This document shows positions 25,883 through 63,407 of a stretch of 64,000 nt of DNA, piece after piece. Under the pieces are notes generated by a model that was given only the letters and a program-made list of their open reading frames with translations, was not told the DNA's origin and searched no databases. Each line of letters opens with the position of its first letter. Within the stretch, counting starts at the first letter, position 1. Both the position numbers and the translations under genes were made by a program. The stretch spans positions 2,656,001-2,720,000 of the forward strand of contig OZ252149.1 of NCBI GenBank assembly GCA_965248755.1, written 5' to 3'. The stretch is from Candidatus Latescibacterota bacterium. GTDB lineage: Bacteria > Latescibacterota > CBDEFO01.

Positions 25883-25901
25883 GACGTAAGCGAAGGTGAC
25901 C

Positions 25902-27491: not shown

Positions 27492-28986
27492 GCATACTGA
27501 CTACGAAATTATCTACAACTGGGACGGCGCCCCTCATGGCTGCTCTGAGGTACCGCAGTCGATGGAAGCATTTTTAGAAAAGGTATACGCCCCACTTGAG
27601 GACACTCAGGTGGGCGCCCACTTCTGGTGCATCGGAGAGCATGCCGCCCGATGGAATAGCGATGTGCTCGAACTGTTAGGTGACTTCCACGATAGGCGCT
27701 ACGAGAACGCCAACAACTACACCTTAACGGAGAACGTCCGTCAGATGTTGGAGCGGGGCGAAGATCCGCAAGAGGCGCTGATCGAGCGAGGTCATCAATT
27801 AGGACTCGATGTCTATGCGTCGGTTCGCATGAACGACAACCACTTCGGCGGTACACAGGTGGAAGACCTTGGGAAGCTTCACCACACCGAACTGACGCGC
27901 ATGCGGATCGAACATCCGGAGTGGCTCTTAGGCGACCAGACATCAGAGTGGTTCGCCCTCTCGTGGAACTTCGCGGTGCCCGAAGTGCGTGAGCACCGCT
28001 TCCTGCATATCAAAGAGATATGCCAGCTATATGACTGGGACGGCGTCGAGCTGGACTGGCAGCGCCACGCCTTCCATTTTCCAGAGGACGATGCCTACAG
28101 ACTCCGCTACCTCCTGACTGACCTCCAGAGGGCTGTCCGCAGGATGACAGATGACATAGCAAAAGAGCGCGGCAGACCCTTCTACGTAGCTGCCCGCGTG
28201 GCTGGGAATCTTGAGATGTGTCGCAACATCGGCTACGATGTTCCCGCCTGGATCGACGAAGGTTTGATGGATATCATAATACCCGCAGGACATGCGTCGA
28301 CCGATCCCTCGATCGATGTAGACACGTTCGTACAGTTGTGTCGGGGTACGGATATCGCTGTCTACCCAGGACTGGACAGCGGATTGGCGCCTTCCTATCT
28401 GGCCATAGCAAGCAGCCACCACAGAGCGGGAGCGGACGGTATCTATGTGTTCAACTGGCACGCAAACCGCGATTCGAGGCGCGAACTCTTATGTCAGATA
28501 GGATCCCCCAACACTCTTCGGCGCAAGGACAAGGTCTACGCTGCCACAAACCGTATCATCCAGAAGGAGGGTCAGTGGCGCGGCGCCTACCGCCTCGACC
28601 AGATCTGGGGCGAAGTGCCGGTTGCCCTGAAACGTACGCTTACGGAAGAGGGCCCGACTATCACACTGAACGTGGCGGATGACCTATCGGTGGACATCCC
28701 CGAGAGCGTTGAGCTTAGAGTTCAGCTCGCGCAGTGGGTGAAAGGCGATCTAGTGCACGTCTATTGGGATGGATCAAAGTTAGAGGATCTCGACGCGAGC
28801 TACGGCTCCCCGGGCCATATCTCAGATGTGAGCGGGGCGGTATGGCTGTGCTGCCAGATGGATCCTTCGAAAGTCGTGTTAGGTCCCCATAAGGTGAAAG
28901 TTGCACTTGCAGAGCGCAACCCGAAAATGGCCTGCGATATAGTGCTGACGGATGTGGAGTTGGTCATACGATATCCTGGGAATTGA
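27484..28986 (+). CDS. Putative glycoside hydrolase, paralog 3 (shorter internal loop)
   Basis: GGAGGTG RBS, ATG 27484; LDSGLAPSYLAIAS replaces FDGGLPDPFVGP..RTRAIAS. Confidence 0.75.
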   Translation: MPKHTDYEIIYNWDGAPHGCSEVPQSMEAFLEKVYAPLEDTQVGAHFWCIGEHAARWNSDVLELLGDFHDRRYENANNYTLTENVRQMLERGEDPQEALIERGHQLGLDVYASVRMNDNHFGGTQVEDLGKLHHTELTRMRIEHPEWLLGDQTSEWFALSWNFAVPEVREHRFLHIKEICQLYDWDGVELDWQRHAFHFPEDDAYRLRYLLTDLQRAVRRMTDDIAKERGRPFYVAARVAGNLEMCRNIGYDVPAWIDEGLMDIIIPAGHASTDPSIDVDTFVQLCRGTDIAVYPGLDSGLAPSYLAIASSHHRAGADGIYVFNWHANRDSRRELLCQIGSPNTLRRKDKVYAATNRIIQKEGQWRGAYRLDQIWGEVPVALKRTLTEEGPTITLNVADDLSVDIPESVELRVQLAQWVKGDLVHVYWDGSKLEDLDASYGSPGHISDVSGAVWLCCQMDPSKVVLGPHKVKVALAERNPKMACDIVLTDVELVIRYPGN

Positions 28987-29013
28987 CGATATAGCACGTA
29001 AGTGAAGATGACC

Positions 29014-30555
29014 ATGGCTAAACACACTAAATACACTAAGTACGGAATTATCTACAACAGGGACGGCGGTCCGCACGGCTGCTCTGAGGTGCCGCAGTCG
29101 ATAGAAGCGTTCTTGGAGAAGGTATACGCCCCATTGGAGGACACTCAGGTGGGTGCTCTCTTCTGGTGCGTTGGAATTCATAGTGCTCACTGGAATAGCG
29201 ATGTCCTGGAGCTGCGCGGCGACGTCCACGGCCGACGCTATGAGAGCGCCGATGCCTACACCAGCACTGAAAACGTCCGTCAAATGTTAGAGCGGGGTGA
29301 AGATGCGCAAGAGGCGCTGATCGAGCGGGGTCATCAATTAGGTCTGGATGTCTATGCATCGGTTCGCATGAACGACAATCACTTCAGCGGCGCCCAGGTG
29401 GAGAACCTTGCGAAGATGCACAGCACCGGACTGACGCGCATGCGGATCGAACATCCGGAGTGGCTCTTAGGCGACCAGACATCAGAGTGGTTCGCCCTCT
29501 CGTGGAACTTCGCGGTGCCCGAAGTACGGGAGCACCGCTTTGCTCATGTCAAAGAGATATGCCAGCTATATGACTGGGACGGCGTCGAGTTAGACTGGCA
29601 GCGCCACGCCTTCCATTTTCCAGAGGACGATGCCTACAGGCTCCGCTACCTCCTGACTGACCTCCAGAGGGCTGTGCGCAGGATGACAGATGACATAGCA
29701 AAAGAGCGCGGCAGACCCTTCTACGTAGCCGCCCGCGTGGCTGGGACTCTCGAGATGTGCCGCAACATCGGCTACGATATTCCCGCCTGGATCGACGAAG
29801 GTCTCCTGGACATCATAATTCCCGCAGGAGGTGGAGAGACCGACCCTGCGCTCGATGTGGCAGCCTTTCTCCAGATGTGCAGGGGTACGGATATCGCTGT
29901 CTACCCCGGATTCGACTGCGGACTTCCAGAACCCTCTGTGGGCCCTGAAGACGCAGGGAACAAAGATAGGATGCGCACGCGTGCCATAGCATCCCGCTAC
30001 CACAGCGCGGGAGCGGACGGCATCTATGTGTTCAACTGGGGAAATTCCAGGCCCGAACTCCTCTGTCAGGTCGGCTCCTATGATACTCTGCGGGGTAAGG
30101 ACAGAATCTATGCGGCTGCGCACCGTTTCATCAAGAAGGAAGGCCAGTGGCGCGGGGCCTTCCGTATCGACTGTATCTGGGGCGAAGTGCCGGTTGCCCT
30201 GAAGCGTACGCTTACAGATGAGGGCCCGACAATCACACTGAACGTCGCGGATGACCTATCGGCTGATGTGCCGGAGAGCGTTGAGCTTAGGGTCCGGCTC
30301 GACCAGTGGGTGAAAGGCGATGTGGTACACGTCTTCTGGGATGGATCAATATTGGAGGATCTCCACACGAGCTACTCCTCCCCCGACGATATCTCGGATG
30401 TGAGCGATACAGTATGGCTGTGCTGCCAGATGGATCCTTCAAAAGTCGCGGTAGGTCCCCATAAGGTGAAAGTTACACTTGCAGAGCGCAACCCGAAAAT
30501 GGCCTGCGATATAGTACTGACGGATGTGGAATTGGTTATACGATATCCTAATTAA
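29014..30555 (+). CDS. Putative glycoside hydrolase, paralog 4 (most diverged)
   Basis: YNRDG, ALFWCVGIHSAH variants of the shared motifs. Confidence 0.75.
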   Translation: MAKHTKYTKYGIIYNRDGGPHGCSEVPQSIEAFLEKVYAPLEDTQVGALFWCVGIHSAHWNSDVLELRGDVHGRRYESADAYTSTENVRQMLERGEDAQEALIERGHQLGLDVYASVRMNDNHFSGAQVENLAKMHSTGLTRMRIEHPEWLLGDQTSEWFALSWNFAVPEVREHRFAHVKEICQLYDWDGVELDWQRHAFHFPEDDAYRLRYLLTDLQRAVRRMTDDIAKERGRPFYVAARVAGTLEMCRNIGYDIPAWIDEGLLDIIIPAGGGETDPALDVAAFLQMCRGTDIAVYPGFDCGLPEPSVGPEDAGNKDRMRTRAIASRYHSAGADGIYVFNWGNSRPELLCQVGSYDTLRGKDRIYAAAHRFIKKEGQWRGAFRIDCIWGEVPVALKRTLTDEGPTITLNVADDLSADVPESVELRVRLDQWVKGDVVHVFWDGSILEDLHTSYSSPDDISDVSDTVWLCCQMDPSKVAVGPHKVKVTLAERNPKMACDIVLTDVELVIRYPN

Positions 30556-44565: not shown

Positions 44566-45274
44566 ACATGATACCTTCCTTTTCGGGATATTCGTCAATC
44601 AATACGCCTGTTTTTCTTTCAGGTTCGTGCATATTAATAGATTTTAAAGCGATTTTGGCATAGAATAAAGTTTTGGTATCAAGTCGATATCTCTAATTGA
44701 GCCTGGCTTTACCCTTTTATTTAGGAAGTCTTCAAAAATCTGTGCTGTAGCCCAAACAAGTTGTTGTTGTTCGTCTTGACCAAAAGGTGGGATTTTATTT
44801 CCGTGGATAAAATCACTTCGCAACTTATAATTATTGTAAACTGTCCAAAAAAATCTCTTCTTATCACTTTTAACTACCTTGGCACAAAAAAGAGCAAGTC
44901 GAATTCGAATTTTTGAAGCCCCTAAACCAGCAAGAGCCTCTAAAGCAGATATACAGTCAAGTAGAGAATCTAACGGCTCGCTACGCCGTGGAGCACTCCA
45001 CCACCTTTGAAAAGCAACTTGTATACGCTTTCCTGTCGGGTGAAAAGCCTTACTTATCCAGTCTTCTATCCGAGCTTTCCGATTTTTGGTTAGTGTATAC
45101 CTGGGTCGGCTTTGGATAAGGTTTTGTGAAGTTGATTCTACGGTTTATACTTCGCTCTAGTCTGTATTCCCACCGTCCTAAAATAAGATCCAACATTTGT
45201 GATACAGTCTCTAATTTATTTGCATTACATACCGCTCCCCTTGACAGAGCGACAAATATTTCGCAAATTGGGGT

Positions 45275-45604
45275 TTGAGAAGGGAGGTCAAGGTGTCGAG
45301 CCCCGAAGTGAAAGATGGTAAGCGCTGGACGGCGACCCGTAAGGGAGAGATTGTGTTGGCTCTTTTGAGAGGAGCAGATCTATCTGAGGTGTGTCGTAAG
45401 AATGGAATTAGCCAGTCGCAGGCGTATGCTTGGCGTGATAGTTTCTTAGAAGGGGGCCAGGAGAGTCTGAAGTCTCGGCGTGGTCGCAAGGATCCGAAGG
45501 AGCGAGAGGTTAGCCGGTTGGAGCGCAAGGTAGGGCAGTTGACGCTCCAGTTGGAGATACTCGAAGAGGTAGCCCGTCTAAAAAAAACGAAGCGGTTGCC
45601 TTGA
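45275..45604 (+). CDS. IS3 transposase OrfA
   Basis: HTH, same as 52249-52578; likely start GTG 45293. Confidence 0.85.
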   Translation: MRREVKVSSPEVKDGKRWTATRKGEIVLALLRGADLSEVCRKNGISQSQAYAWRDSFLEGGQESLKSRRGRKDPKEREVSRLERKVGQLTLQLEILEEVARLKKTKRLP

Positions 45605-45704
45605 GTGGGCGGTTTTTGGGTCGAGGCTATTCCCGCAAGGTGGTAGCTTTGGCTTTGGGTTTGCATCGTTCGACTCTGTATAGGTTTAGGGATAGAGGTG
45701 TCAG

Positions 45705-45890
45705 CCCGGATTTACCCGGCCAGGAGTAGGACAAAAATGCCTGCATCACCTCTGACGATACCCCCTTAACCCTTCCACCTAACTCCTGATTGTATTTCTC
45801 AATAAAGTAATCGACAAGGAAAAAGGGAAGGTCCTCGATATGCTCGCGTAGCGGCGGCAGGACGATAGGAACGACGTTAAGGCATAAGAA
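45705..45890 (-). pseudogene. Captured 186-bp fragment of a sigma54-dependent (NtrC-family) activator gene
   Basis: Minus strand reads LNVVPIVLPPLREHIEDLP..FIEKYN..VS.EVM..LSYSWPG. Confidence 0.8.
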
Positions 45891-47516
45891 CCGACATTCC
45901 CCATATCACATTCATGAGGGATTATATTTCGATACATTCTTGTTTCTGAATTAATATTACCACTTTTACATTTTTCAACAAGTACTTTTTTCAATTAAAA
46001 TAGTATTTTCCTCTGAATTATCACTTTCTTTGTGTTTAAATCCTCCAATTAGAGACACCTCTCCATCGACTCACAAAAAAATGTGGCAGTTTAAACAGAA
46101 TAACATCGCAATCGTTCAATCCGGGATAATATTTCGGCAAATAACCTCTTGTCTATCCCAACCTCAGCCATTTGAAACGTAATATATCCGCTGTGTCTGA
46201 CAATCTTCGCTCCGATTTTGATAAATTTCACGAGGAGGCTGCGTAGTGACCAGTGTTTGATTTTCTTCGGAAGAACAAAACGTCGCAGGAAGTTGCCCAA
46301 GTTGTAAGCCAGAACAAACAGCCAGAGCCTCACCTGATTGGAGACGAAACGCTTGCATGAGAGTCGGGTCCAGTTCAGAGCATACTTGCCCTCCTTAATC
46401 CACTGCTCAGCTCTGCCACGGCCATTGTAGAAGTGTACCACGCCTTCTGGCTTGGCGCTCATGTTGGTCACGATAAATCCCACTCTTGGGAATAACTCCC
46501 CTTGGTGCCATTCAACCTTGGCGACCACTCGCCTCGATTGATCCCAACTGGCCGCTTTATATTGAAATTCATATAACGATACAATCGGTTTCCTCGGCGG
46601 TCGTCCAACTGGCCGAGTCAGCAGGTATCGTATCTTTTCATAGAGTATCTCATTTGCGGGAAGCCGAATGGCATACAAATAGCCGTTTCCCTCCAGATAA
46701 TCATAAATCTCAGGCTTTGCGAATGCAGCATCGCCTCGAAAGTATTTCCTATTCTTCTTGCTCTCGTATCTCTTGACGATCGGTTCCAGAACTTCCTTCC
46801 AACGATCAGCACTGTGAACATTACCAGAGCGAAGTAGGACTCCTTCACAATCCCCGAACTGATTGAAGCAGAACACTGGATGAAAACAGGTACATCCGAA
46901 ATGACCGTTGTAAGCTGATCCTTCCTGCTGGCCATGTACCGGACTCTCCGAACTGTCCATGTCCAGAATGATTCGTTGATGCTGTGTTTTACTCATCGCT
47001 TTTTGAACCCACTTGCCATTGATATCTGACAAGTTTCTGAGATTGTCATGCTGAGTCAGTATATCAGTTTCAAAACGTCCTATCGTGTTGGAGCTGGCAG
47101 CTTGCCTGCCTTTGTCCTTCTTTCCGGTAATCGCTCGCATGACGGGATCAACGGATAATCGCTCGGCGTCATTTACATCTTCATATCCTGCAAGACGGCT
47201 GTATATCGATTGACGCAGGAGAGTAGATATATCATGTTGGATATTACGGCCTGTGCGTTTATCGGTAAAAACCGCTGATACCGAATCAAATAATCCCAGT
47301 GCGTAATCAAGGTCACGATACGCAAGAAGTCCACCGTTTGATGTCACCTTTGCACCATGAAATTCAAGCTTTATTCCTCCATCAAAACCTACTTTCATTC
47401 TTTCACCCTCTGGATGATCAATATTTATCCGCCATTTATGAGTCTTATTTATTGTAATATAACATGTTCTGGCGACTTTGACAACCATTTTTCGGGTCTA
47501 ATATGGCGAATGGGGG
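45891..47516 (-). mobile_element. IS1380-family copy 2 (1626 bp)
   Basis: IRL CCCCCATTCGCCATAT / IRR CCGACATTCCCCATAT. Confidence 0.93.
46091..47488 (-). CDS. IS1380-family transposase
   Basis: GGLL, AGYEDVNDAERL..DP, DMDS, RGDAAF motifs. Confidence 0.93.
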   Translation of the reverse strand: MVVKVARTCYITINKTHKWRINIDHPEGERMKVGFDGGIKLEFHGAKVTSNGGLLAYRDLDYALGLFDSVSAVFTDKRTGRNIQHDISTLLRQSIYSRLAGYEDVNDAERLSVDPVMRAITGKKDKGRQAASSNTIGRFETDILTQHDNLRNLSDINGKWVQKAMSKTQHQRIILDMDSSESPVHGQQEGSAYNGHFGCTCFHPVFCFNQFGDCEGVLLRSGNVHSADRWKEVLEPIVKRYESKKNRKYFRGDAAFAKPEIYDYLEGNGYLYAIRLPANEILYEKIRYLLTRPVGRPPRKPIVSLYEFQYKAASWDQSRRVVAKVEWHQGELFPRVGFIVTNMSAKPEGVVHFYNGRGRAEQWIKEGKYALNWTRLSCKRFVSNQVRLWLFVLAYNLGNFLRRFVLPKKIKHWSLRSLLVKFIKIGAKIVRHSGYITFQMAEVGIDKRLFAEILSRIERLRCYSV

Positions 47517-47521
47517 GTCAG

Positions 47522-48281
47522 TTCTTCTGTTAAAGAGCCTGTGATAGATGAGGAGCTTGCTTTTCGTATTCGAGGGATACTGGACCAAGAAGAGGCATTT
47601 GGTCACAGGCGGGTTTGGGCGCATCTTCGTTTCAAGGAAGGGGAATGTGTCAACGTTAAGAAGGTTCATAGGATAATGAAGCTTAAGGGGTGGCAGTGTA
47701 AGCTGTGGAATCGTCCCGGGAGAAAGGGGCCACAGGTTGCCCAGAAGCGTTCTGTGGTGGATAGTCCCGACAGTTTGTGGTCGAGTGACTTGACAAAGAT
47801 TTACTGTGGAAAAGATGGTTGGTGTCCTCTTATTGCGGTGGTGGACAACGGAAGCCGGGAGGTTCCTGGGTATCGTTTTAGTCGAAAAGGGAGGGCACTG
47901 GAGGCCACAGATGCCCTGGATCGGGCCGTGATCTCTCGATACACTTCCAAGGAGGCTGTCCCCCAGGGTCTCACTTTGCGCTCTGACAATGGTTCCATCT
48001 TTTTGGCTCGGGCCTATTTGGCCAGTACCGAATATTGGGGAATTCGTCAGGAATACATACCAAGTGGTAAACCCGATTGGAACGGTGTTGTAGAGCGTTT
48101 TTTCAGGACCCTCAAGCAAGAGTGTGTTTGGCTTCACAAGTTTGAATCCTTTGAACAGGCTGAGAAGATCATATCTCAGTGGATCGATAATTACAACAAG
48201 AACAGGCTTCATTCATCCCTGGGATATAAGACCCCAAAAGAGTGGAGAAAACAATTTTATCTACTACCCCAGGTTGCTTAA
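47522..48281 (+). pseudogene. IS3 OrfB (integrase core) separated from OrfA
   Basis: WSSDLT, SDNGS, ERFFRTLKQE, YNKNRLHSSLGY. Confidence 0.85.
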
Positions 48282-51715: not shown

Positions 51716-52248
51716 ACCCATAACGCCCTTATGATCCGCAGGGCTAAACGTACTGGTTCTGAAGGACCCCCGCTCTGAAATCCTCCGCATTCATCGGCAG
51801 AAGCAGTTACTCCTCCGTAATAAGTAAACTTTGATAACTCCTTTATAGTATATCTATGTATAGCCACCGCTTTCAGCCCCGCTGAACACAGACACTCCGC
51901 AGGCGGGGCTTCAAAACGCGCTCTTGGGCAAAGGGGAACAAATCGCCTTTGGAGACCCCACAGTAGAAGCGGATGGCATTCATCCACAGCTAACCAGTGT
52001 TGATATTCTCCAATTATGCTTATGAAGGAGGCTGTTAATTTTTTGCTTCTATCTACATCAGCAACTAATTCATGTACGACGAATATTATTCTTGGTCTTT
52101 CAGTACTTATGAACTATATTTATCAACGAGACAGGCTGAAATGAAGAGTTCAAACTGAGGTTCGCTACTGCAAAGATAAAAGATCTTTGAGATAAGGATA
52201 GCATACCGCTCCCCTTGACAGAGCGACAAATATTTCGCAAATTGGGGT

Positions 52249-52578
52249 TTGAGAAGGGAGGTCAAGGTGTCGAGCCCCGAAGTGAAAGATGGTAAGCGCT
52301 GGACGGCGACCCGTAAGGGAGAGATTGTGTTGGCTCTTTTGAGAGGAGCAGATCTATCTGAGGTGTGTCGTAAGAATGGAATTAGCCAGTCGCAGGCGTA
52401 TGCTTGGCGTGATAGTTTCTTAGAAGGGGGCCAGGAGAGTCTGAAGTCTCGGCGTGGTCGCAAGGATCCGAAGGAGCGAGAGGTTAGCCGGTTGGAGCGC
52501 AAGGTAGGGCAGTTGACGCTCCAGTTGGAGATACTCGAAGAGGTAGCCCGTCTAAAAAAAACGAAGCGGTTGCCTTGA
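52249..52578 (+). CDS. IS3 OrfA
   Basis: HTH; A-rich slippery run (TAAAAAAAAC) at ~52553-52562; likely start GTG 52267. Confidence 0.88.
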   Translation: MRREVKVSSPEVKDGKRWTATRKGEIVLALLRGADLSEVCRKNGISQSQAYAWRDSFLEGGQESLKSRRGRKDPKEREVSRLERKVGQLTLQLEILEEVARLKKTKRLP

Positions 52579-53438
52579 GTGGGCGGTTTTTGGGTCGAGG
52601 CTATTCCCGCAAGGTGGTAGCTTTGGCTTTGGGTTTGCATCGTTCGACTCTGTATAGGTTTAGGGATAGAGGTGTCAGTTCTTCTGTTAAAGAGCCTGTG
52701 ATAGATGAGGAGCTTGCTTTTCGTATTCGAGGGATACTGGACCAAGAAGAGGCATTTGGTCACAGGCGGGTTTGGGCGCATCTTCGTTTCAAGGAAGGGG
52801 AATGTGTCAACGTTAAGAAGGTTCATAGGATAATGAAGCTTAAGGGGTGGCAGTGTAAGCTGTGGAATCGTCCCGGGAGAAAGGGGCCACAGGTTGCCCA
52901 GAAGCGTTCTGTGGTGGATAGTCCCGACAGTTTGTGGTCGAGTGACTTGACAAAGATTTACTGTGGAAAAGATGGTTGGTGTCCTCTTATTGCGGTGGTG
53001 GACAACGGAAGCCGGGAGGTTCCTGGGTATCGTTTTAGTCGAAAAGGGAGGGCACTGGAGGCCACAGATGCCCTGGATCGGGCCGTGATCTCTCGATACA
53101 CTTCCAAGGAGGCTGTCCCCCAGGGTCTCACTTTGCGCTCTGACAATGGTTCCATCTTTTTGGCTCGGGCCTATTTGGCCAGTACCGAATATTGGGGAAT
53201 TCGTCAGGAATACATACCAAGTGGTAAACCCGATTGGAACGGTGTTGTAGAGCGTTTTTTCAGGACCCTCAAGCAAGAGTGTGTTTGGCTTCACAAGTTT
53301 GAATCCTTTGAACAGGCTGAGAAGATCATATCTCAGTGGATCGATAATTACAACAAGAACAGGCTTCATTCATCCCTGGGATATAAGACCCCAAAAGAGT
53401 GGAGAAAACAATTTTATCTACTACCCCAGGTTGCTTAA
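52575..53438 (+). CDS. IS3 OrfB (DDE), -1 frameshift fusion partner
   Basis: rve core motifs; overlaps OrfA in the -1 frame. Confidence 0.9.
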   Translation: MSGRFLGRGYSRKVVALALGLHRSTLYRFRDRGVSSSVKEPVIDEELAFRIRGILDQEEAFGHRRVWAHLRFKEGECVNVKKVHRIMKLKGWQCKLWNRPGRKGPQVAQKRSVVDSPDSLWSSDLTKIYCGKDGWCPLIAVVDNGSREVPGYRFSRKGRALEATDALDRAVISRYTSKEAVPQGLTLRSDNGSIFLARAYLASTEYWGIRQEYIPSGKPDWNGVVERFFRTLKQECVWLHKFESFEQAEKIISQWIDNYNKNRLHSSLGYKTPKEWRKQFYLLPQVA

Positions 53439-53467
53439 TTGGTGTCGCTTTCCTGGGAAGCAGTACA

Positions 53468-54600
53468 ATATTTCTTGGGCAGAAAGAATTCTTTTACCGC
53501 CCGGTGAGCACTTCGATAAAGAACAAAAGGTAGTAATAAAATGTTTTGAAACCAAAGATATTCTTGCCTGCCCGGGTAGTGGTAAAACAAAGGCTTTGAT
53601 TGCCAAGTTGTTGATTTTGTCCCGGCAAATGCCTCTTGAAAATAATAGGGGTATTTGCGTATTAACTCACACAAATGTGGCTATAAATGAAATAAAAAGC
53701 CACGCTTACTTTGCTTCTAAAAAGCTCTCTAATTACCCAAATCATTTTGGGACAATTCAAAGTTTCGTGGATAAATATCTTGCGATACCGACGTATATCA
53801 ATCAGTTCAACCGAAGACCATTATTCATAAACAACGAAATTTATCTTGATAGGATGGAAAGAACGAGAAAATATTTAGGTAGAAAAACAAATGCATTTTG
53901 CTATCAGAGCGGTCATAAAGATTTGCCTTATTCACTTAGATTTGAAGATTTTTCCCTGGATGATAATGGTATATGTAAAAGACTTAAATTAGATTCAAAT
54001 GATACAACTCAAAGAGCACACTATGATAGATTGCTAAGACTAAAAGAACGGATACTTTTGGATGGAATACTAAGCTATGATGATGCATATTATATAGCAG
54101 AAAGACACATTGAAAAGCACCCTAATTTGAAAAACGTATTTGCAAAAAGATTTGCCTATGTTTTCATAGATGAAATGCAGGATTCAAGTACAATACAGTC
54201 CGAACTGATGAATAAAATATTCAATGATAATGTTGTTATTCAAAAAATAGGTGATTTAAATCAATCAATATTTGACTATGACCCTAACTTGGAATGCGGT
54301 TGGGCAGTAATTGACGACAGAACTATGTGTATTACAGGTAGTAAAAGATTTTCTAACGCTATAGCAAGCAAGGTTGAAAAACTTTGTGTTTTCCGGCAGA
54401 CAATAACGGGAAATGGCAGGCAAAATGAAATTACTCCTGTTATCATTGTTTATGATGATTATACTATTCAGCAGGTATTAGATAAATTCGGTGAAATAAT
54501 TATCAGAAATAATCTACATCAGAATGAGAAAAGGGTATTTAAAGCAGTTGGATGGCGTGGAAAACCGCATGACACAAAAAGAACTATACCAAGTTATTGG
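53468..54600 (+). pseudogene. UvrD/SF1 helicase (GajB-like), N part; start lost to IS3 B
   Basis: ACPGSGKT, LTHTNVA, GTIQSF, IDEMQD, IGDLNQSIF. Confidence 0.85.
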
Positions 54601-54629
54601 TGTACTGCTTCCCAGGAAAGCGACACCAA

Positions 54630-55389
54630 TTAAGCAACCTGGGGTAGTAGATAAAATTGTTTTCTCCACTCTTTTGGGGTCTTATATCCCAGGGATGAAT
54701 GAAGCCTGTTCTTGTTGTAATTATCGATCCACTGAGATATGATCTTCTCAGCCTGTTCAAAGGATTCAAACTTGTGAAGCCAAACACACTCTTGCTTGAG
54801 GGTCCTGAAAAAACGCTCTACAACACCGTTCCAATCGGGTTTACCACTTGGTATGTATTCCTGACGAATTCCCCAATATTCGGTACTGGCCAAATAGGCC
54901 CGAGCCAAAAAGATGGAACCATTGTCAGAGCGCAAAGTGAGACCCTGGGGGACAGCCTCCTTGGAAGTGTATCGAGAGATCACGGCCCGATCCAGGGCAT
55001 CTGTGGCCTCCAGTGCCCTCCCTTTTCGACTAAAACGATACCCAGGAACCTCCCGGCTTCCGTTGTCCACCACCGCAATAAGAGGACACCAACCATCTTT
55101 TCCACAGTAAATCTTTGTCAAGTCACTCGACCACAAACTGTCGGGACTATCCACCACAGAACGCTTCTGGGCAACCTGTGGCCCCTTTCTCCCGGGACGA
55201 TTCCACAGCTTACACTGCCACCCCTTAAGCTTCATTATCCTATGAACCTTCTTAACGTTGACACATTCCCCTTCCTTGAAACGAAGATGCGCCCAAACCC
55301 GCCTGTGACCAAATGCCTCTTCTTGGTCCAGTATCCCTCGAATACGAAAAGCAAGCTCCTCATCTATCACAGGCTCTTTAACAGAAGAA
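54630..55389 (-). pseudogene. IS3 OrfB fragment
   Basis: Same as the 47522-48281 fragment. Confidence 0.85.
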
Positions 55390-55394
55390 CTGAC

Positions 55395-57020
55395 CCCCCA
55401 TTCGCCATATTAGACCCGAAAAATGGTTGTCAAAGTCGCCAGAACATGTTATATTACAATAAATAAGACTCATAAATGGCGGATAAATATTGATCATCCA
55501 GAGGGTGAAAGAATGAAAGTAGGTTTTGATGGAGGAATAAAGCTTGAATTTCATGGTGCAAAGGTGACATCAAACGGTGGACTTCTTGCGTATCGTGACC
55601 TTGATTACGCACTGGGATTATTTGATTCGGTATCAGCGGTTTTTACCGATAAACGCACAGGCCGTAATATCCAACATGATATATCTACTCTCCTGCGTCA
55701 ATCGATATACAGCCGTCTTGCAGGATATGAAGATGTAAATGACGCCGAGCGATTATCCGTTGATCCCGTCATGCGAGCGATTACCGGAAAGAAGGACAAA
55801 GGCAGGCAAGCTGCCAGCTCCAACACGATAGGACGTTTTGAAACTGATATACTGACTCAGCATGACAATCTCAGAAACTTGTCAGATATCAATGGCAAGT
55901 GGGTTCAAAAAGCGATGAGTAAAACACAGCATCAACGAATCATTCTGGACATGGACAGTTCGGAGAGTCCGGTACATGGCCAGCAGGAAGGATCAGCTTA
56001 CAACGGTCATTTCGGATGTACCTGTTTTCATCCAGTGTTCTGCTTCAATCAGTTCGGGGATTGTGAAGGAGTCCTACTTCGCTCTGGTAATGTTCACAGT
56101 GCTGATCGTTGGAAGGAAGTTCTGGAACCGATCGTCAAGAGATACGAGAGCAAGAAGAATAGGAAATACTTTCGAGGCGATGCTGCATTCGCAAAGCCTG
56201 AGATTTATGATTATCTGGAGGGAAACGGCTATTTGTATGCCATTCGGCTTCCCGCAAATGAGATACTCTATGAAAAGATACGATACCTGCTGACTCGGCC
56301 AGTTGGACGACCGCCGAGGAAACCGATTGTATCGTTATATGAATTTCAATATAAAGCGGCCAGTTGGGATCAATCGAGGCGAGTGGTCGCCAAGGTTGAA
56401 TGGCACCAAGGGGAGTTATTCCCAAGAGTGGGATTTATCGTGACCAACATGAGCGCCAAGCCAGAAGGCGTGGTACACTTCTACAATGGCCGTGGCAGAG
56501 CTGAGCAGTGGATTAAGGAGGGCAAGTATGCTCTGAACTGGACCCGACTCTCATGCAAGCGTTTCGTCTCCAATCAGGTGAGGCTCTGGCTGTTTGTTCT
56601 GGCTTACAACTTGGGCAACTTCCTGCGACGTTTTGTTCTTCCGAAGAAAATCAAACACTGGTCACTACGCAGCCTCCTCGTGAAATTTATCAAAATCGGA
56701 GCGAAGATTGTCAGACACAGCGGATATATTACGTTTCAAATGGCTGAGGTTGGGATAGACAAGAGGTTATTTGCCGAAATATTATCCCGGATTGAACGAT
56801 TGCGATGTTATTCTGTTTAAACTGCCACATTTTTTTGTGAGTCGATGGAGAGGTGTCTCTAATTGGAGGATTTAAACACAAAGAAAGTGATAATTCAGAG
56901 GAAAATACTATTTTAATTGAAAAAAGTACTTGTTGAAAAATGTAAAAGTGGTAATATTAATTCAGAAACAAGAATGTATCGAAATATAATCCCTCATGAA
57001 TGTGATATGGGGAATGTCGG
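55395..57020 (+). mobile_element. IS1380-family copy 3 (1626 bp)
   Basis: Same IRs and sequence as copy 2. Confidence 0.93.
55423..56820 (+). CDS. IS1380-family transposase
   Basis: Same 465-aa ORF. Confidence 0.93.
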   Translation: MVVKVARTCYITINKTHKWRINIDHPEGERMKVGFDGGIKLEFHGAKVTSNGGLLAYRDLDYALGLFDSVSAVFTDKRTGRNIQHDISTLLRQSIYSRLAGYEDVNDAERLSVDPVMRAITGKKDKGRQAASSNTIGRFETDILTQHDNLRNLSDINGKWVQKAMSKTQHQRIILDMDSSESPVHGQQEGSAYNGHFGCTCFHPVFCFNQFGDCEGVLLRSGNVHSADRWKEVLEPIVKRYESKKNRKYFRGDAAFAKPEIYDYLEGNGYLYAIRLPANEILYEKIRYLLTRPVGRPPRKPIVSLYEFQYKAASWDQSRRVVAKVEWHQGELFPRVGFIVTNMSAKPEGVVHFYNGRGRAEQWIKEGKYALNWTRLSCKRFVSNQVRLWLFVLAYNLGNFLRRFVLPKKIKHWSLRSLLVKFIKIGAKIVRHSGYITFQMAEVGIDKRLFAEILSRIERLRCYSV

Positions 57021-57580
57021 ATAAGTACGAGAAAAAGGTCTCAGCTCAGATTTCTGCTCAACAGGAAGCATTAATGGCGGTGGCTACTGCTCGGGCCAAA
57101 GCGCAGCAGGCCGAGCAGGAAAAGCTGACTAAAGAGGCCGTAGGTAAAGCCAATGTCATTAAAGCCCAGTACGAAAAGGAGGAGGAGAAGATTCGTGCTG
57201 TGGTTGAAGCCCTGCAGGAAAAAGAGGTCGCCGAATTGCGAGCCCAACAGGAGCTTGAGGTAGCCAAGCTGCAGCGGCAGGCCGCAGAACTCCAAAAGCA
57301 GCGCGAAATCCTGCTGGGCCAGGGCGAAGCCGAACGCAAAAGGCTGATAATGAAGGCAGACGGCTCCTTAAAGATAAAGCTTGAGACTTACGAAAAGGTG
57401 ATGAAGTTTTGGGCTGATGCTTATGCAAAACGTCAGGTTCCGCAGCTGGTTATGGGTGGTTCTGGCGGTGCTAGTGGCACCGATCAATCCACTCTAAATT
57501 TCAATTCGGCCATGCAACTTTTGGTGGCAAAACAGCTTGGTCTAGACCTCAACGTGCCCAGAGGGACTGCTGGGAGGTAA
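57021..57580 (+). pseudogene. C-terminal coiled-coil fragment of an SPFH/band-7-like protein (cargo)
   Basis: Ala/Glu/Gln/Lys-rich heptads, GEAERKRLIMKADG..VPQLVMGG; 5' end abuts the IS IRR. Confidence 0.6.
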
Positions 57581-57587
57581 GGGGTGT

Positions 57588-58082
57588 GAGATCCAGCCTC
57601 TCTTCAAGCGGGCACTGACAATCAGTAAGAAGGTCCTCGGTCTAGACCATCCTAACGTGAAAGTCCTTCGATATGCACTTGAGGACGTCGAAGGGAAACG
57701 CAGGACGGTCTGCGTATCCTCTCAGGTCGGGTGTGCTCTGGGATGCACCTTCTGTTCGACCGCAAGGATGGGGCTGATACGGAACCTCTCTGCCGCAGAG
57801 ATTATAGATCAGCTCATATCCGTCAGGAGACATCATAAGCAGATAGACGACGGCATCACCAACGTGGTGATGATGGGTATGGGAGAGCCGCTCCTGAACT
57901 ACAAAAACGTGGTCAGGGCCATAAGGCTCATGGGTCTGGAGATGGGACTCGGGATCGGCGCTCGCAAGATAACCGTCTCCACGGCAGGATTTGTGCCCGG
58001 CATAGATCGGCTCAGAGATATCTCCGCCGCCTGCGGTCAGCTTATAACACCGGTCCCCAGGCAGGGGGCTGTCATATTTTAA
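57588..58082 (+). pseudogene. rlmN: Chimeric remnant: TPR fragment + internally deleted rlmN
   Basis: [22 protein letters not shown] then [32 protein letters not shown], jumping to DISAACGQL. Confidence 0.75.
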
Positions 58083-58208
58083 GTGTCATATACGTGAGCA
58101 CAGAGAGATGTTAGAGCGGATAGAAGATGTGGAAAACCTGGAGATGTTTGAGGAGATGAGAAAGAAGTCCCCTCAATTTCAGGAAGCGCAACAATTTCAT
58201 GAATTAAT

Positions 58209-58235
58209 GTCATTCCCGTGGAAACGGGAATCCAG
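58209..58235. repeat. GTCATTCCCG-N-CGGGAATCCAG palindrome (dRS3/REP-like)
   Basis: ATTCCC-8nt-GGGAAT. Confidence 0.6.
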
Positions 58236-58277
58236 GGATGCCATGAAACCCTATTACTTGCTAGTTAGCAAATGCGG

Positions 58278-59629
58278 CTGAGTATCTGTTGTTAAAGGCA
58301 GTGGATGAACTGATAGCTTCGAATAAAAATATAAATTTCAAATCAATCTATAACTGGATTTTAAATTACCAACCTTTTTCAAGGGAAAGGGACTGGAAGG
58401 CATCTGCTTTAAATGTTTTATACAAAGTAACTACAGGATCAACAGGCGAGGTTCTGAATTCTGATAGGACAATTGAGATTGAGAAACTTACAGAGAAGCA
58501 GGTTGTATTGGAAATCGGAAGTGTAGGGAGTCAACAGGATAAAAGCTTTTTTGTTCAGACTTTACTTTTAAGGATCTACAGACATTTTTTAAAATTAGGA
58601 AGTTCTAAAGATTTGAGGTTCTCTATCGTTTTGGAAGAAGCACATAATCTCCTTCTAAAACATAAAATAGGTTATGAAAGTGTAACTGAATTAGTCTTAC
58701 GACAGATAAGGGAGTTGGGAGTTGGCTGTATTATAGCAGATCAGCATCCACATTTGATGACACTGCCGGCTATAGCAAACTATGCAACTATATGTATGAA
58801 TTTGAAGACTGAGGAAGATGTTAGGACAATGGCAAATGCTATGCTCTTGGATAAGGAGAGGGATTACATAGGCAGACTTCCTGTAGGATGGGGTATCATA
58901 AAGCTTCAGGATAGATTTTTGAAGCCTTTCTTGGTTAGATTTCCTGAATGTAAGATGGGAGATGGGAAGGTTCCATCTTCATTAAGTGATTTCACAGATT
59001 TCAGTCTTAAGACAGCTGGAGCTGCTGGAAATACAGGGATTTGGCATAGAGATAAACTTAGCAGGAGAGAGAAGGTATTTTTGACAGATATTTTCAAGCA
59101 TCCAGAATCCTATGTTATTGAGAGATATAAAAGGTTAGAGGTAAATCCAAGGGCTGGCAATCAGTGTTTAAAAGATTTGGAGGAGAGGGGATTCATCAAG
59201 CCTGTGTATGTAAGAGTTAAAAGAGGGAAGGTGAAGCTGTTTGACCTCACGGCCCTTGGGAGAGAGTATCTTAAAAAGCTTGGGTATAGAGCATCTAACA
59301 GAAGTGGTGGGGCAGAGCATAAGTTCTGGCAGAGGAAAGTGATGGAGCATTACATTGCAAAGGGTTATAAAGTTTATCCTGAATATTCTGTTGGGGCTGG
59401 GAAGAAGGTTGATGTTGTTGCTGTCAAGGATGGAAGGAAAATAGCGATTGAGATTGAGACCGGGAAATCTGATGCTGTCTCTAATATCGTAAAATGTGTA
59501 AAGGCTGGATTTGAACAGGTAATATCTGTTGCCGTATCCAAAAGACTTAAAGAGGATATAGAAAAAAGCTTAAAAGGGAAAATCGTGGATAAAGTAAAAG
59601 TGGTCTGTTTAAAACGGATTGATCTGTGA
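58278..59629 (+). pseudogene. 5'-truncated HerA/VirB4-like ATPase fused to wHTH and a PD-(D/E)xK-like domain (cargo)
   Basis: IVLEEAHN (Walker B), RELGVG.IIADQHP; C-terminal EH..VDVV..IAIEIETG; Walker A absent. Confidence 0.7.
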
Positions 59630-59901
59630 TGGGATGGAACATGTCTTGCGCATTTGGATGGATAATAATGAAGGTGCAAAGTTTCGCCTGTTTTTTCCAA
59701 AACCTTGAAACTACTCTGGATCTCAGTGCATCGGACCAGTTGAAATCGAAAGAATTAAATACCTGGAATCACAACCTTTAAAACAGGAGTAAACTTCATT
59801 CTCTTTTATTACCCTTCAAGCCAGTAGCCCTCCGGTGGCTCTTTGTCTTCAAGGGTAACTTAGGGGGAACTTTTAAATAGAAGCTATACTTTCCCAATTG
59901 T

Positions 59902-61113
59902 ATGAAGCAAACAATTATAGATATCCATAACTTTGCACAAAAAGAACAGACAGCCAGAAAACATTTACTTGAAGCAGAAATATCTAATAGAAGTAAGGAA
60001 CTGATTTTAGAGTTCATAGATGACCTGGAATGCAGTGGAATGGGAAAAGCAAGAATTGTAAAGACAATTTCTATGGTGAAGAATATTGCAATGAAATTGA
60101 AAAAGGGGTTTCCATCAGCAGATGAAAATGATCTGAAGAAGTTTGTGAAGTCGATTCAAAACAATGGTTTTTATTCTGCCTGGACAAAGCAGGATTACAA
60201 CAAGGCGTTGAAGAAATTCTACAGGTGGCTCATAGGGAAAGGTTACACAAAAGTTGATGTTGAGTGGATACCAATAACGATGAAGTCAAAGGATAAGCCA
60301 AAACTCAAAAGAAGTGAGCTTCTAACAGAAGAGGAAGCGCATAAGGTTGTGGAGGAATGTGAGAATGCAAGGGACAAGGCATTGATATCCTTGATATGGG
60401 ATACTGGTGCAAGGATAGGAGAGATAGGTTCTATGACGATTGGCAGCGTACATTTTGAAGATGGTGGAACACTTGTGGATCTTAAAGGCAAGACAGGAAG
60501 CAGGACAGTTTTTGTTATTGAGAGCACACCACATCTGTTGACATGGCTCAAGCTTCACCCCTTCAAGGACGATCCAAAGACTCCCCTGTGGGTGACCATG
60601 GGACAGGATAGGATACACAAATATAAGCCGTTAAGATACCGGACATTCTACAAAATATTTGAGAGGTCTTTCAAAAAAGCTGGAATAAGGAAATCCTGGA
60701 ACCCGCATCTGTACAGACATTCTCGGGCTTTATGGTGTGTGCTGAATAACTGGAACACTATTATGGCCAACAAGTTCTTTGGCTGGGCAGACAACAGCAA
60801 TATGTATTCTTACTACGTATCTTTGGCTAATGAAGATGTGAAAGAGAAGATGATGCAGAGCTATGGGATAAGCACGAAGAAGGAAGATGAACTGGAAAAG
60901 AGAAAGCCGAAAATATGTGCCAGATGTGAGGCTTTGAATCAGCCCAAAGTGAAATTCTGCTATAGATGTGGTATGGCGATAGATCTAAAGACTGTGTTGA
61001 GCTTAGACGAGCAACGGAAGGCTTCTGATGAACTGATGAACGCACTTGTGAAAGATCCTGAAGTTCAGAGGATTCTTGTCAACAAGATCAGGGAAATGAG
61101 ACTAAGGGTGTAA
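59902..61113 (+). CDS. Tyrosine recombinase/integrase with C-terminal Zn ribbon (archaeal-type)
   Basis: DTGARIGE, GKTG.R, PHLYRHSRA, FGW..YY; CARC..N..FCYRCG. Confidence 0.88.
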   Translation: MKQTIIDIHNFAQKEQTARKHLLEAEISNRSKELILEFIDDLECSGMGKARIVKTISMVKNIAMKLKKGFPSADENDLKKFVKSIQNNGFYSAWTKQDYNKALKKFYRWLIGKGYTKVDVEWIPITMKSKDKPKLKRSELLTEEEAHKVVEECENARDKALISLIWDTGARIGEIGSMTIGSVHFEDGGTLVDLKGKTGSRTVFVIESTPHLLTWLKLHPFKDDPKTPLWVTMGQDRIHKYKPLRYRTFYKIFERSFKKAGIRKSWNPHLYRHSRALWCVLNNWNTIMANKFFGWADNSNMYSYYVSLANEDVKEKMMQSYGISTKKEDELEKRKPKICARCEALNQPKVKFCYRCGMAIDLKTVLSLDEQRKASDELMNALVKDPEVQRILVNKIREMRLRV

Positions 61114-61274
61114 TCTAGTATTCACATTTTCTGAGTCTTACTGTTTTTGACCTTTTGACCCTGCCGGCTTTTTGTAAAGAACCCATCGTTTCTTTGTCCC
61201 TCCCCATTTCACGCCCCAATTCATACCCAACTACGTGGAAAGTTGTTATATACTTCTGGCTCTCACCTCCTTTT

Positions 61275-61382
61275 ATGGCATCAGAAAAAGAGAAGGAGAT
61301 ATTCAGCCACCTTCCGGAGTGGATGAAGATATTAAACGATATGACCAAGGAGATTGAAGAACAAGAATCTGAAAAGTACTAA
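61275..61382 (+). CDS. Small hypothetical protein (35 aa)
   Basis: MASEKEKEIFSHLPEW..; TATA-like TTATATA 29 nt upstream. Confidence 0.4.
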   Translation: MASEKEKEIFSHLPEWMKILNDMTKEIEEQESEKY

Positions 61383-61493
61383 AATGCTCTTATATCCTAA
61401 ATTTCAGGGGAATTGTAAATCGAACTTCTATGGAAAGCCTTTTGAAGCTATTGATTATCTTTCTCTTAGTTTATACAACGCAGGAGTGATAAA

Positions 61494-61682
61494 ATGACAA
61501 AAGTAATTGACCCAAACTTTGAAACCTTTGGATGGAAAACCCATGTTAGAGAAAGAAGAGGTTCGTTTAAGATTACTATAAACAATCTGATAGCTGTGGG
61601 GGCAGGACTGAAACACGGACAGCCCCTGTACTGCTATGTTGCCAAAGATAAGGATGGCAGGACCTTAATTGTAATATATCCG
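61494..61682 (+). pseudogene. Small AbrB-like protein, 3' end cut at the cargo boundary
   Basis: GGAGTGA RBS; RERRGSFKITI..GLKHGQPL. Confidence 0.5.
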
Positions 61683-61782
61683 CTGACACCTCTATCCCTA
61701 AACCTATACAGAGTCGAACGATGCAAACCCAAAGCCAAAGCTACCACCTTGCGGGAATAGCCTCGACCCAAAAACCGCCCAC

Positions 61783-62112
61783 TCAAGGCAACCGCTTCGT
61801 TTTTTTTAGACGGGCTACCTCTTCGAGTATCTCCAACTGGAGCGTCAACTGCCCTACCTTGCGCTCCAACCGGCTAACCTCTCGCTCCTTCGGATCCTTG
61901 CGACCACGCCGAGACTTCAGACTCTCCTGGCCCCCTTCTAAGAAACTATCACGCCAAGCATACGCCTGCGACTGGCTAATTCCATTCTTACGACACACCT
62001 CAGATAGATCTGCTCCTCTCAAAAGAGCCAACACAATCTCTCCCTTACGGGTCGCCGTCCAGCGCTTACCATCTTTCACTTCGGGGCTCGACACCTTGAC
62101 CTCCCTTCTCAA
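61783..62112 (-). CDS. IS3 OrfA
   Basis: Same as the other copies. Confidence 0.85.
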   Translation of the reverse strand: MRREVKVSSPEVKDGKRWTATRKGEIVLALLRGADLSEVCRKNGISQSQAYAWRDSFLEGGQESLKSRRGRKDPKEREVSRLERKVGQLTLQLEILEEVARLKKTKRLP

Positions 62113-62159
62113 ACCCCAATTTGCGAAATATTTGTCGCTCTGTCAAGGGGAGCGGTATG

Positions 62160-62925
62160 TTGGGACGGCTACTCCAAAGAAATAAAAGTTAAAAAAACTG
62201 AATTTAGTAATCTAAAAAGTTATTTAGCTCCACAATCTGATAGTTTTATTTCATCTAATGGAGTTAATTTTTACAAGAAGAGGTTAGGGGAAGCTTTCTT
62301 AAAGTGCTTAAGAATTGCAGGAGTAACTGACGATGGAAGGGCATTCACAGAGAAAAAACTGCATAAATATATATCAGAAAAAAACTCGGATTTTTACCAG
62401 GATTTTAGGGTAAGGCTCGCCAATTGGTGTTTGAAGATACACAGGCAAGAAGAAGTTTTTGAAGAAATAAAACATTATCTAACCAATGAATTTAAGGAGT
62501 TTTTTAATTATCAGGTGAATGTTGAACTTACAATCTTTATAAATTCATCAGATTTGGAAGCGGATGATGAAGAAACCCATTCGAGCAATAACATCTACAA
62601 ATATTCTTCTGGAACAACTGATATCGACATAGAAGTTTCAACTATTCATGGTGTCAAAGGCGAAACCCATACGGCAACATGTTACCTTGAAACTTTCTTT
62701 TATGACTATGACATTAAGCGAATAATAAATTATATAAAGGGAGAGCATACTAAGCCAAAAGAAAGAGTAATTCAAAATCTAAAAATGGCTTTTGTAGGGA
62801 TGTCACGTCCATCTCGTCTCCTTTGCATTGCGGTTCATAAGGATAGTATTACCGGACAAGAAGAAGCACTGCAGAGAAGTGGTTGGGATGTTAATAAGGA
62901 ATTGTTAGCAGGTAGTAATAACTGA
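62160..62925 (+). pseudogene. UvrD/SF1 helicase (GajB-like), C part
   Basis: Continues in frame after the TSD (SYW-DGYSKE..); STIHGVKGETH, FVGMSRP. Confidence 0.85.
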
Positions 62926-62987
62926 AACAAGAAGGCTATTTATAATCGAAGATAGGTGCGATAATCGAAGATGGGTGGTTGCCATAT

Positions 62988-63407
62988 CATACCGTTCCCC
63001 TTCACAGAACGACAGATATTCTGTAAATCGGGGTTCGCGAAGGGCAAGATGTCAGCGCCAGAGCAGAAGACGGCTAGCGCTGGACAACGGTTCGATCTTT
63101 CTTTCTAGATCCTATTTGGTAAGTACCGAATATTAGGGGTTTGTCAAGAATATGTTCCGAGCGGAAAGGCCGATTGGAACGGTGTTGTAGAGCGTTTTTT
63201 CAGGACCCTCAAGCAAGAGTGTGTTTGACTTCACAGCTTCGAATCCTTTGAGCAAGCTGAGAAGATCATATCTCAGTGGATCGATAATTACGACAAGAAC
63301 CGTCTTCATTCATCCCTGGGATACAAGACCCTGCAAGAATGGAGAAAACAATAATATCTGCTACCCCAAGTTGCTTAATCGGTGTCGCTTTCCAGGGGGG
63401 CAGTACA
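62988..63407 (+). mobile_element. Degenerate, internally deleted relative of the IS3 element (420 bp, MITE-like)
   Basis: CATACCGTTCCCC.. and ..GGGGGCAGTACA ends; diverged orfB 3' remnant. Confidence 0.8.

Follow-up and report, generated by a model that had tools for sequence, protein, structure and literature searches.

How an integrase gene of archaeal appearance came to stand in a bacterial chromosome is the question raised by an AT-rich block at positions 58278-61682 of the window, the 64,000-nucleotide stretch analysed here, which represents positions 2,656,001-2,720,000 of the single-contig genome (4.54 Mb, 48.9% GC) of a Candidatus Latescibacterota bacterium (OZ252149.1). The block contains part of an ATPase gene, an att-like site, a tyrosine integrase gene and small genes, and is carried as cargo of an IS1380-family insertion sequence (IS). 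A preliminary description of the sequence had taken the block for a module of an archaeal integrative element, captured into the chromosome by the IS1380 unit. All of the features named there are present and the block is AT-rich; the archaeal assignment held for the integrase, its promoter/att region, a 35-amino-acid (aa) gene and an AbrB-like gene, but not for the ATPase. Probably, the block stems from a hybrid integrative element, in which an archaeal att-integrase cassette was set on a backbone long resident in the bacterial lineage, and which was recently recopied by IS1380. It is best read as a dead passenger with two layers of history.

The integrase gene (59902-61113, + strand) is intact and encodes a tyrosine integrase of a DPANN (Woesearchaeota-like) type with a C-terminal four-cysteine ribbon. 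The protein matched PF00589 (E 8e-22), with weak Pfam matches to zinc ribbons, and retains R171, K197, H269, R272, W295 and Y305 as well as the cysteines C339/C342/C353/C356. A scan of genome contigs with the single sequence gave no match; an alignment scan of the contigs succeeded and yielded 157 confirmed genome loci, the best 80 of which were tallied. As the preliminary description had anticipated, archaeal matches dominated, 69 of these best 80 loci carrying archaeal titles and 11 bacterial ones. In a FastTree tree of 136 rows and in a quick IQ-TREE tree (LG+G4) built on 50 of them, the integrase fell in an archaeal clade with a support of 100 in both, the two named rows of which are both archaeal (L025, Woesearchaeota; L024, a bin of 1.4 Mb titled Methanosarcinales), and grouping with two Latescibacterota-titled integrases was rejected (approximately unbiased test, p-AU 4e-125). 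The bacterial rows were dispersed in the tree, the starred branches requiring at least six changes. Six bacterial and three archaeal rows formed another clade with a support of 100, and the window integrase lies outside it.

At E<=1e-60, integrase matches were found in 27 of 251 genomes of the phylum that holds the Woesearchaeota bin L096 (top match 47%) and in 3 of 60 relatives of the host, with none in the same-genus genome. The loci L025 and L071 and the 47% top match belong to the unpublished genomes G173 and G176; the evidence from L024, from the archaeal locus L104 described below and from the tally is independent of these. A search of 50,697 phage records gave 17 hits, the best being the integrases of the Geoglobus and Archaeoglobus pleomorphic viruses (33% and 30%, respectively); halovirus integrases were 25-26% identical to the window integrase, and SNJ2 itself was not among the 17. 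Scores against curated Xer models fell short of the cut-offs (XerA, 101 bits against 220; XerC and XerD, approximately 62 against 330). The integrase nests among archaeal tRNA-linked integrases and is, as judged from these alignments, of archaeal origin; in its present host it is probably silent. As a separate observation, genes which we take to be Cdc6/Orc1-like adjoin members of this integrase family (L023, 11940-12986; L089, 11230-12270; L116, 8418-9467; L093, 1870-2934), some of them on bacterial-titled contigs, and these neighbours are possibly archaeal-type replication initiators in bacterial elements.

Directly upstream of the integrase lies a putative, unrecombined attP-like site (59809-59858, + strand), consisting of inverted arms at 59809-59820 and 59847-59858 (11 of 12 positions complementary) around a 13-nt core at 59828-59840. 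The core matches 12 of the last 13 nt (3' acceptor strand) of the intron-bearing archaeal tRNA at L024, and at both L024 and L104, whose integrase is 54% identical, such a tRNA ends just before the integrase promoter. The 52 nt of L104 from the tRNA end to the TATA box match positions 59828-59879 of the window at 38 of 52 positions and at an equal distance from the ATG, the next best match elsewhere in the host reaching 30 of 52. Homologues of a neighbouring gene at L104 occur in four of four small archaeal genomes, whereas the host has none. Where the tRNA would continue, the window has the inverted copy of the arm instead, as an attP should. None of the 47 host tRNA ends matches the core, the donor locus (see below) contains no tRNA, and the core has no match longer than chance elsewhere. 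The site is flanked by arms on both sides rather than being split into attL and attR at the 3' end of a tRNA; integration of that kind was seen only in archaeal relatives of the window integrase. Among loci with a readable start, a tRNA T-arm within 130 nt upstream of the integrase was found at 21 of 37 archaeal loci (16 of the 30 with archaeal titles and 5 of the 7 from the DPANN phylum), at none of nine bacterial loci (own copy included) and at 16 of 41 unlabelled ones.

Between this site and the gene stands a putative archaeal BRE/TATA-type promoter (TFB recognition element and TATA box; 59862-59879, + strand), from which the leaderless integrase gene would be transcribed and whose sequence and spacing are homologous to those of the L104 promoter. 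The TATA-like boxes reported earlier before the integrase and the 35-aa open reading frame (ORF) were located as TTTAAATA, starting at 59872 before the ATG at 59902, and TTATATA, starting at 61246 before the ATG at 61275. The TATA pattern occurs at -33 to -22 in only 3 of 3,191 long host ORFs, a count made with a pattern picked after the boxes had been seen and with crudely assigned ORF starts. No sigma-70 consensus was found on the + strand before the integrase; a TATACT hexamer resembling a bacterial -10 box lies just upstream of both ATGs. To our knowledge, bacteria lack TBP and TFB, the users of BRE/TATA promoters. The att-promoter DNA is, on this comparison, archaeal in origin, and the promoter is predicted to be one used by TBP/TFB.

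The arrangement is reminiscent of the SNJ2-type archaeal tRNA-targeting integrases, whose att core is short and lies at the 3' end of the tRNA; integrases of archaeal pleomorphic viruses were the best matches among phage records. A core as short as the tRNA amino-acid end is known for SNJ2 (excerpts of PMC8371274 and PMC5861418), the family of which comprises proteins with at least 30% identity over 60% to members and is given as restricted to Halobacteria (excerpt of PMC8371274); archaeal integrases are treated more widely in parts of PMC11529989 and PMC8138268. Unlike that system, the window integrase resides in a bacterial chromosome beside a whole att-like site with no cognate tRNA, and has a four-cysteine tail and its closest relatives among the DPANN, halovirus matches reaching only about 25%.

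Two small genes follow the integrase. A TATA-like box (61246-61252) and a 35-aa gene (61275-61382) together occupy 61246-61382 (+ strand), the gene belonging to a PEW-motif family that accompanies this integrase family: 52 matches were found in 58,760 short frames, 35 of them within 600 bp of an integrase, with five own copies and some duplicate rows included in these counts and most loci picked for their integrase. The 35-aa protein probably has an accessory or regulatory role. The second gene (61494-61682, + strand) is of the AbrB/MraZ type (swapped hairpin) and is cut after codon 63 of 71 by the right end of the IS1380 unit. Its protein is 39-45% identical to its five closest DPANN homologues, and the 71-aa family occurs in 9 of 201 DPANN genomes, in most cases away from any integrase, and in 2 of 168 genomes of the host phylum; Pfam gave no match. 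For a tandem paralogue in the donor copy, a structural model with a predicted local distance difference test score of 87 aligned with MraZ (1n0e; Z 9.4, root-mean-square deviation 3.6, 109 aligned residues), followed by PHS018 (Z 6.0). Foldseek returned no match at E<=0.001 for this model, and a protein atlas gave only scores under 0.8 for it and no usable match for the 132-aa protein of the donor copy. The modelled fold of the paralogue is the swapped-hairpin barrel predicted for an AbrB/MraZ-type protein.

The ATPase gene presents a different case. Only its 3' part remains (58278-59629, + strand; ORF 58289-59629), from a HerA/DUF87-type ATPase-winged helix-nuclease gene without its Walker A half; the motifs left are presumably Walker B (LEEAH), a winged helix and a PD-(D/E)xK-type nuclease, and Pfam gave only a weak PadR match. 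Since the N-terminal 175-200 residues, including Walker A, that are present in the 600-700-aa homologues are absent, the gene is 5'-truncated, which the preliminary description had not mentioned. A search with nine full-length homologues did not find the 5' half in the genome, and it is absent from both the window and the donor copies, so that the Walker A and Walker B of an active HerA/VirB4-type ATPase do not occur in one chain. Full-length homologues contain PF01935, the domain of HerA/DUF87 ATPases, and score weakly, far below the curated cut-offs, with CedD, CedB, HerA and VirB4 models; the family differs from the HerA/DUF87 and Ced-type ATPases of integrative elements by an additional winged helix and nuclease domain, and the copy in the window also by the loss of Walker A.

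Archaeal best matches had been expected for the ATPase and were not obtained, the best full-length named matches lying in the host phylum (38-39% over approximately 400 residues). Matches were found in 8 of 168 host-phylum genomes (best E 1e-74), in 28 of 301 DPANN genomes (best 9e-54) and in 24 of 136 genomes of the phylum holding Aenigmatarchaeota (best 1e-37, up to 42%, mostly in the ATPase half). In a tree of 119 rows the named neighbours were mixed, and 24 of 27 DPANN rows formed a separate group. A 284-aa gene family of the donor copy was found in none of 151 DPANN and in 4 of 168 host-phylum genomes, and the 132-aa family in none of 201 DPANN genomes and in both elements of G069, a two-contig genome of the host phylum. 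Decayed remnants of the element (74-88% identity) occur at seven other places in the genome and, at 75-81%, in the same-genus genome. On these comparisons, the ATPase and backbone are not demonstrably archaeal.

Some further observations concern the backbone. The 284-aa cysteine-rich protein (L002, 6855-7709) has 80 homologues (49-70%), several of them on contigs equal in length to those of near ATPase homologues, and no Pfam family, and may be a hallmark gene of the element family; no relative was found when viral contigs were scanned with the alignments of this protein and of the ATPase. At genome positions ~992,700, 1,260,100, 2,918,400 and 3,041,300, an 80-bp relic of the ATPase linker adjoins paralogous secreted-protein clusters (CBM9/TPR and cysteine-rich small proteins), twice directly after a DUF488 remnant, and these clusters may be old cargo of the element family.

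The immediate source of the block is recorded in the flanking DNA. An IS1380-family element of 1,626 bp (55395-57020, + strand), with a transposase ORF at 55423-56820 of the IS1380-type DDE class (NF033539, 385 bits against a cut-off of 180; PF13701, E 2e-128), forms the left part of a 6,288-bp unit (55395-61682) with 4,662 bp of cargo downstream of the IS. The unit splits an IS3-family element, the 3' part of which lies at 54601-55394 and the 5' part at 61683-62159 (both - strand), with the target duplication CTGAC on both sides (55390-55394 and 61683-61687). Position 61682 is accordingly a true transposition junction. The right end of the unit, a degenerate one, matches the true IS right end at 7 of 14 positions. 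The left junction at 58277/8 is the end of an earlier captured segment (57021-58277, + strand; 52% GC) of host DNA, containing the 3' half of a split host gene, which we take to be SPFH-like, a radical-SAM gene fragment and short pieces. This first 1.26 kb of cargo derives from genome position 2,982,012, where the other half of the split gene stands before an IS.

An identical 6,288-bp copy is found at genome positions 1,274,927-1,268,640, 1.44 Mb away. There the AbrB-like gene is whole and is followed by the tandem AbrB-like, 132-aa, 284-aa and DUF488-N3a genes, the copy running 2.2 kb past the end of the unit, which identifies it as the donor; its far flank has 86% homologues in the same-genus genome. 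The capture path was serial, from host gene to element to IS3, and the proposal that IS1380 brought archaeal DNA into the bacterium must be replaced: the IS only recopied the cassette inside the chromosome, one-ended transposition being a known mechanism. As a side observation, the donor copy is part of an island of approximately 50 kb (genome 1,235,700-1,289,000) that starts at a tRNA-Arg(CCG) and contains other integrases, a HerA-like gene, a type IIG restriction-modification gene and a split nuclease-helicase pair.

The genome contains 47 full IS1380 copies with 0-1 mismatch. Fifteen are simple insertions with the duplication directly at the right end, in 22 the 5-bp duplication follows only at the end of 58 to 5,520 bp of cargo, and in ten none was seen at the places checked; 34 copies fall in eight groups with common downstream DNA. 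In the ISEcp1/ISEc9 elements of the same family, a single copy mobilises the DNA downstream of it by using its own left end together with a degenerate right end, and 5 bp of the target are duplicated (excerpt of PMC12116815), as in the cargo unit described here. The present units differ in that they occur in an environmental bacterium and carry host and element DNA free of resistance genes, and in that the process is genome-wide (22 of 47 copies) and serial, with one unit built on an earlier one. The capture known from resistance genes can, in a recent burst, reshuffle a whole environmental genome.

Base composition gave a mixed picture. The ATPase part, integrase and tail of the block have GC contents of 38%, 41% and 39%, respectively, against 48.9% for the genome, and the 5.6-kb donor block ranks in the lowest 0.5% among 407 host windows of equal size. 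AT-richness alone was rejected as a mark of foreign DNA, the IS (44%) and a neighbouring helicase fragment (34%) being AT-rich too. The tetranucleotide comparison that had been suggested did not indicate a foreign origin, the usage being within the host range (r 0.55, 32nd percentile). The genome is bacterial, its DnaK sharing 73% identity with the DnaK of a Poribacteria bin and that of a Latescibacterota single-cell genome (best of five tested).

The probable sequence of events for the hybrid element is as follows. In DPANN archaea, the integrase family would sit right behind its target tRNA under a leaderless TATA promoter, and excision would give a circle ordered ATPase gene, attP, integrase and small genes. 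The att-integrase-PEW-AbrB cassette would then have joined ATPase-bearing integrative elements of sediment bacteria, and the element would have entered the chromosome without using its own att site, which is still whole. In the two later steps, which can be read directly from the DNA, an IS1380 unit with 1.26 kb of host DNA came into the ATPase gene of the element at 1.27 Mb, the 5' half of the gene being lost, and the IS retransposed in ISEcp1 style from its left end to a degenerate right end 4,662 bp downstream, placing the 6,288-bp unit in IS3 with a 5-bp duplication.

Several points weigh against this reading. The integrase trees were built with FastTree and a quick IQ-TREE run without bootstrap, the nearest integrase (P0002, 78%) lies on a contig without host assignment, and several bacterial labels come from fragmented bins, the contig L044 looking archaeal on one side. 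For the attP reading of 59809-59858, the sequence pattern is the sole basis. The sequences flanking the donor IS (TTTAA left, CTGAG right) do not form a duplication, and its insertion into the ATPase gene therefore involved a deletion or recombination that went unseen. Host assignment is also lacking for most near relatives of the ATPase and the 284-aa protein, and the ATPase tree carried long-branch warnings. The DPANN genomes G405 (tRNA-integrase ... ATPase) and G280 (integrase-ATPase) pair this integrase with the ATPase family, and one near ATPase is labelled Aenigmarchaeota, so that the backbone may be archaeal too. Taken further, these last points would mean that the whole 5.6-kb element is archaeal and arrived in one piece from an unsampled archaeal host, IS1380 still only recopying it. 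The full length of the G405 ATPase can be aligned with the family, the donor genes are equipped with ribosome sites of the GGAGTGAT/GAGGTGAT type, the interior order ATPase-att-integrase is the outcome of an excised archaeal circle, and the matches in 24 of 136 genomes of the Aenigmatarchaeota-holding phylum (ATPase half, up to 42%) point the same way. We nevertheless regard a wholly archaeal element as rather unlikely, given that the 284-aa and 132-aa families were not found in the 151 and 201 DPANN genomes searched, respectively, yet are present in host-phylum genomes, that 24 of 27 DPANN ATPase rows stand apart, and that the tetranucleotide correlation is ordinary and old remnants persist in the genome and the genus.

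The cassette could also be archaeal and domesticated, the integrase acting as a resolvase or excisionase on its own arm-flanked site, which would be whole because it is functional and no relic. Its intact catalytic residues, the TATACT hexamers before both ATGs, the recurrence of arm-flanked, tRNA-less TATA sites in several bacterial-labelled loci and the clade of six bacterial and three archaeal rows are compatible with such a role, but the integrase strand has no full sigma-70 promoter, the window integrase stands outside the bacteria-rich clade, only one att-like site was seen per unit and the core has no match beyond chance elsewhere; domestication is an improbable explanation. Direct capture of archaeal DNA by IS1380, as first proposed, is very improbable. 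In both copies the IS does adjoin the 5' side of the block, and foreign DNA of 36 kb can be mobilised by one ISEcp1/ISEc9 copy in natural transformation (excerpt of PMC12116815), but the segment next to the IS is host DNA from genome position 2.98 Mb, and the donor runs 2.2 kb beyond the unit end, has no matching duplication and contains genes with older remnants in the genome and the genus. An assembly chimera, in which the repeated IS led to an archaeal contig being fused with the bacterial chromosome, has the least to recommend it and is extremely improbable: the genome is a single contig, the 5-bp duplication is exact and its pattern was seen 22 times, and the donor's far flank is shared with the same-genus genome. 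In four runs of one sample, the block is covered by contig pieces of 5.2-5.6 kb that run into the donor form, one contig, beginning at 58226, bridges the 58278 junction, and contigs of 5,607 nt extend from the block into the donor continuation. It counts in favour of a chimera that the block is flanked by high-copy repeats, that the four runs represent contigs of one sample, and that no bridge from 61682 into IS3 is among the contig pieces listed; the last point counts against the hybrid element too.

The hybrid element is one case of an element family seen in both domains, and what is new is the intact archaeal cassette in a closed bacterial chromosome. Protein trees in fragmented bins are the usual grounds for inferring transfer from archaea to bacteria. 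In the present single-contig genome of a bacterium, the non-coding signature of the donor (tRNA-end core, arm, TATA box and leaderless start) is retained beside the integrase, and this gives the direction of transfer and a searchable marker. Bacterial homologues in a similar context, which would have spoken against an archaeal source, do exist, but these elements too carry archaeal-type integrases: bacterial-titled contigs with plainly bacterial neighbours carry the integrase (most of them from fragmented bins), and arm-flanked, tRNA-less sites with a TATA box recur before the integrases of several bacterial-labelled loci. Elements related to the present one are found in DPANN genomes as well as in bacterial genomes that are nearly complete. 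The two elements of G069 each contain ATPase, AbrB-like and 132-aa genes; one of them has an integrase of another type, for which 11 of 151 DPANN genomes gave hits, with 43-45% matches among these. Tentatively, and with slightly less than even confidence, we suggest that the family, marked by an ATPase-winged helix-nuclease and a tRNA-targeting integrase, repeatedly crosses back and forth between DPANN archaea and bacteria of sediments, using tRNA ends in archaea and another entry route in bacteria, where the attP-TATA-integrase cassette is left whole as a mark of each crossing, and that at least two DPANN integrase types were carried into this phylum. If the family truly spans both domains, it would be a concrete vehicle for DPANN-bacteria gene flow and a hint of physical contact.

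A literature search, with most subscription journals and supplements outside it, found no description of this element family in bacteria. Sharing of genes between DPANN archaea and subsurface bacteria through mobile DNA is reported for Nanobdellota-bacteria protein clusters on groundwater plasmids (excerpt of bioRxiv 10.64898/2026.05.20.726742) and for integron-mediated cross-domain transfer (excerpt of PMC9668308). The present case resembles these; it differs in that the excerpts treat protein clusters or integron cassettes and not an intact archaeal att-promoter-integrase cassette in bacterial chromosomes.

Minor observations were made on the surrounding mobile DNA. Neighbouring IS3 copies (45211-48281 and 54601-62159) are split at the same CTGAC site by IS1380 units, with cargo of 186 bp and 4,662 bp, respectively, and this may reflect a target hot spot inside IS3 or a linked event. 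Eight copies of the IS-plus-186-bp unit are present (e.g. genome 167,860 and 2,703,516), every one with a separate duplication, and the 186-bp captured end seems to have turned into a preferred new right end. At 52202-54600 and 62410-63407, IS3 copies are followed by UvrD-type helicase gene fragments; such nested IS3-plus-fragment arrays of varied lengths recur genome-wide, which suggests IS3-driven adjacent deletions or capture. Further upstream in the window, 24314-30555 contains four tandem, closely related genes of 517-531 aa, presumably glycoside hydrolase-like.

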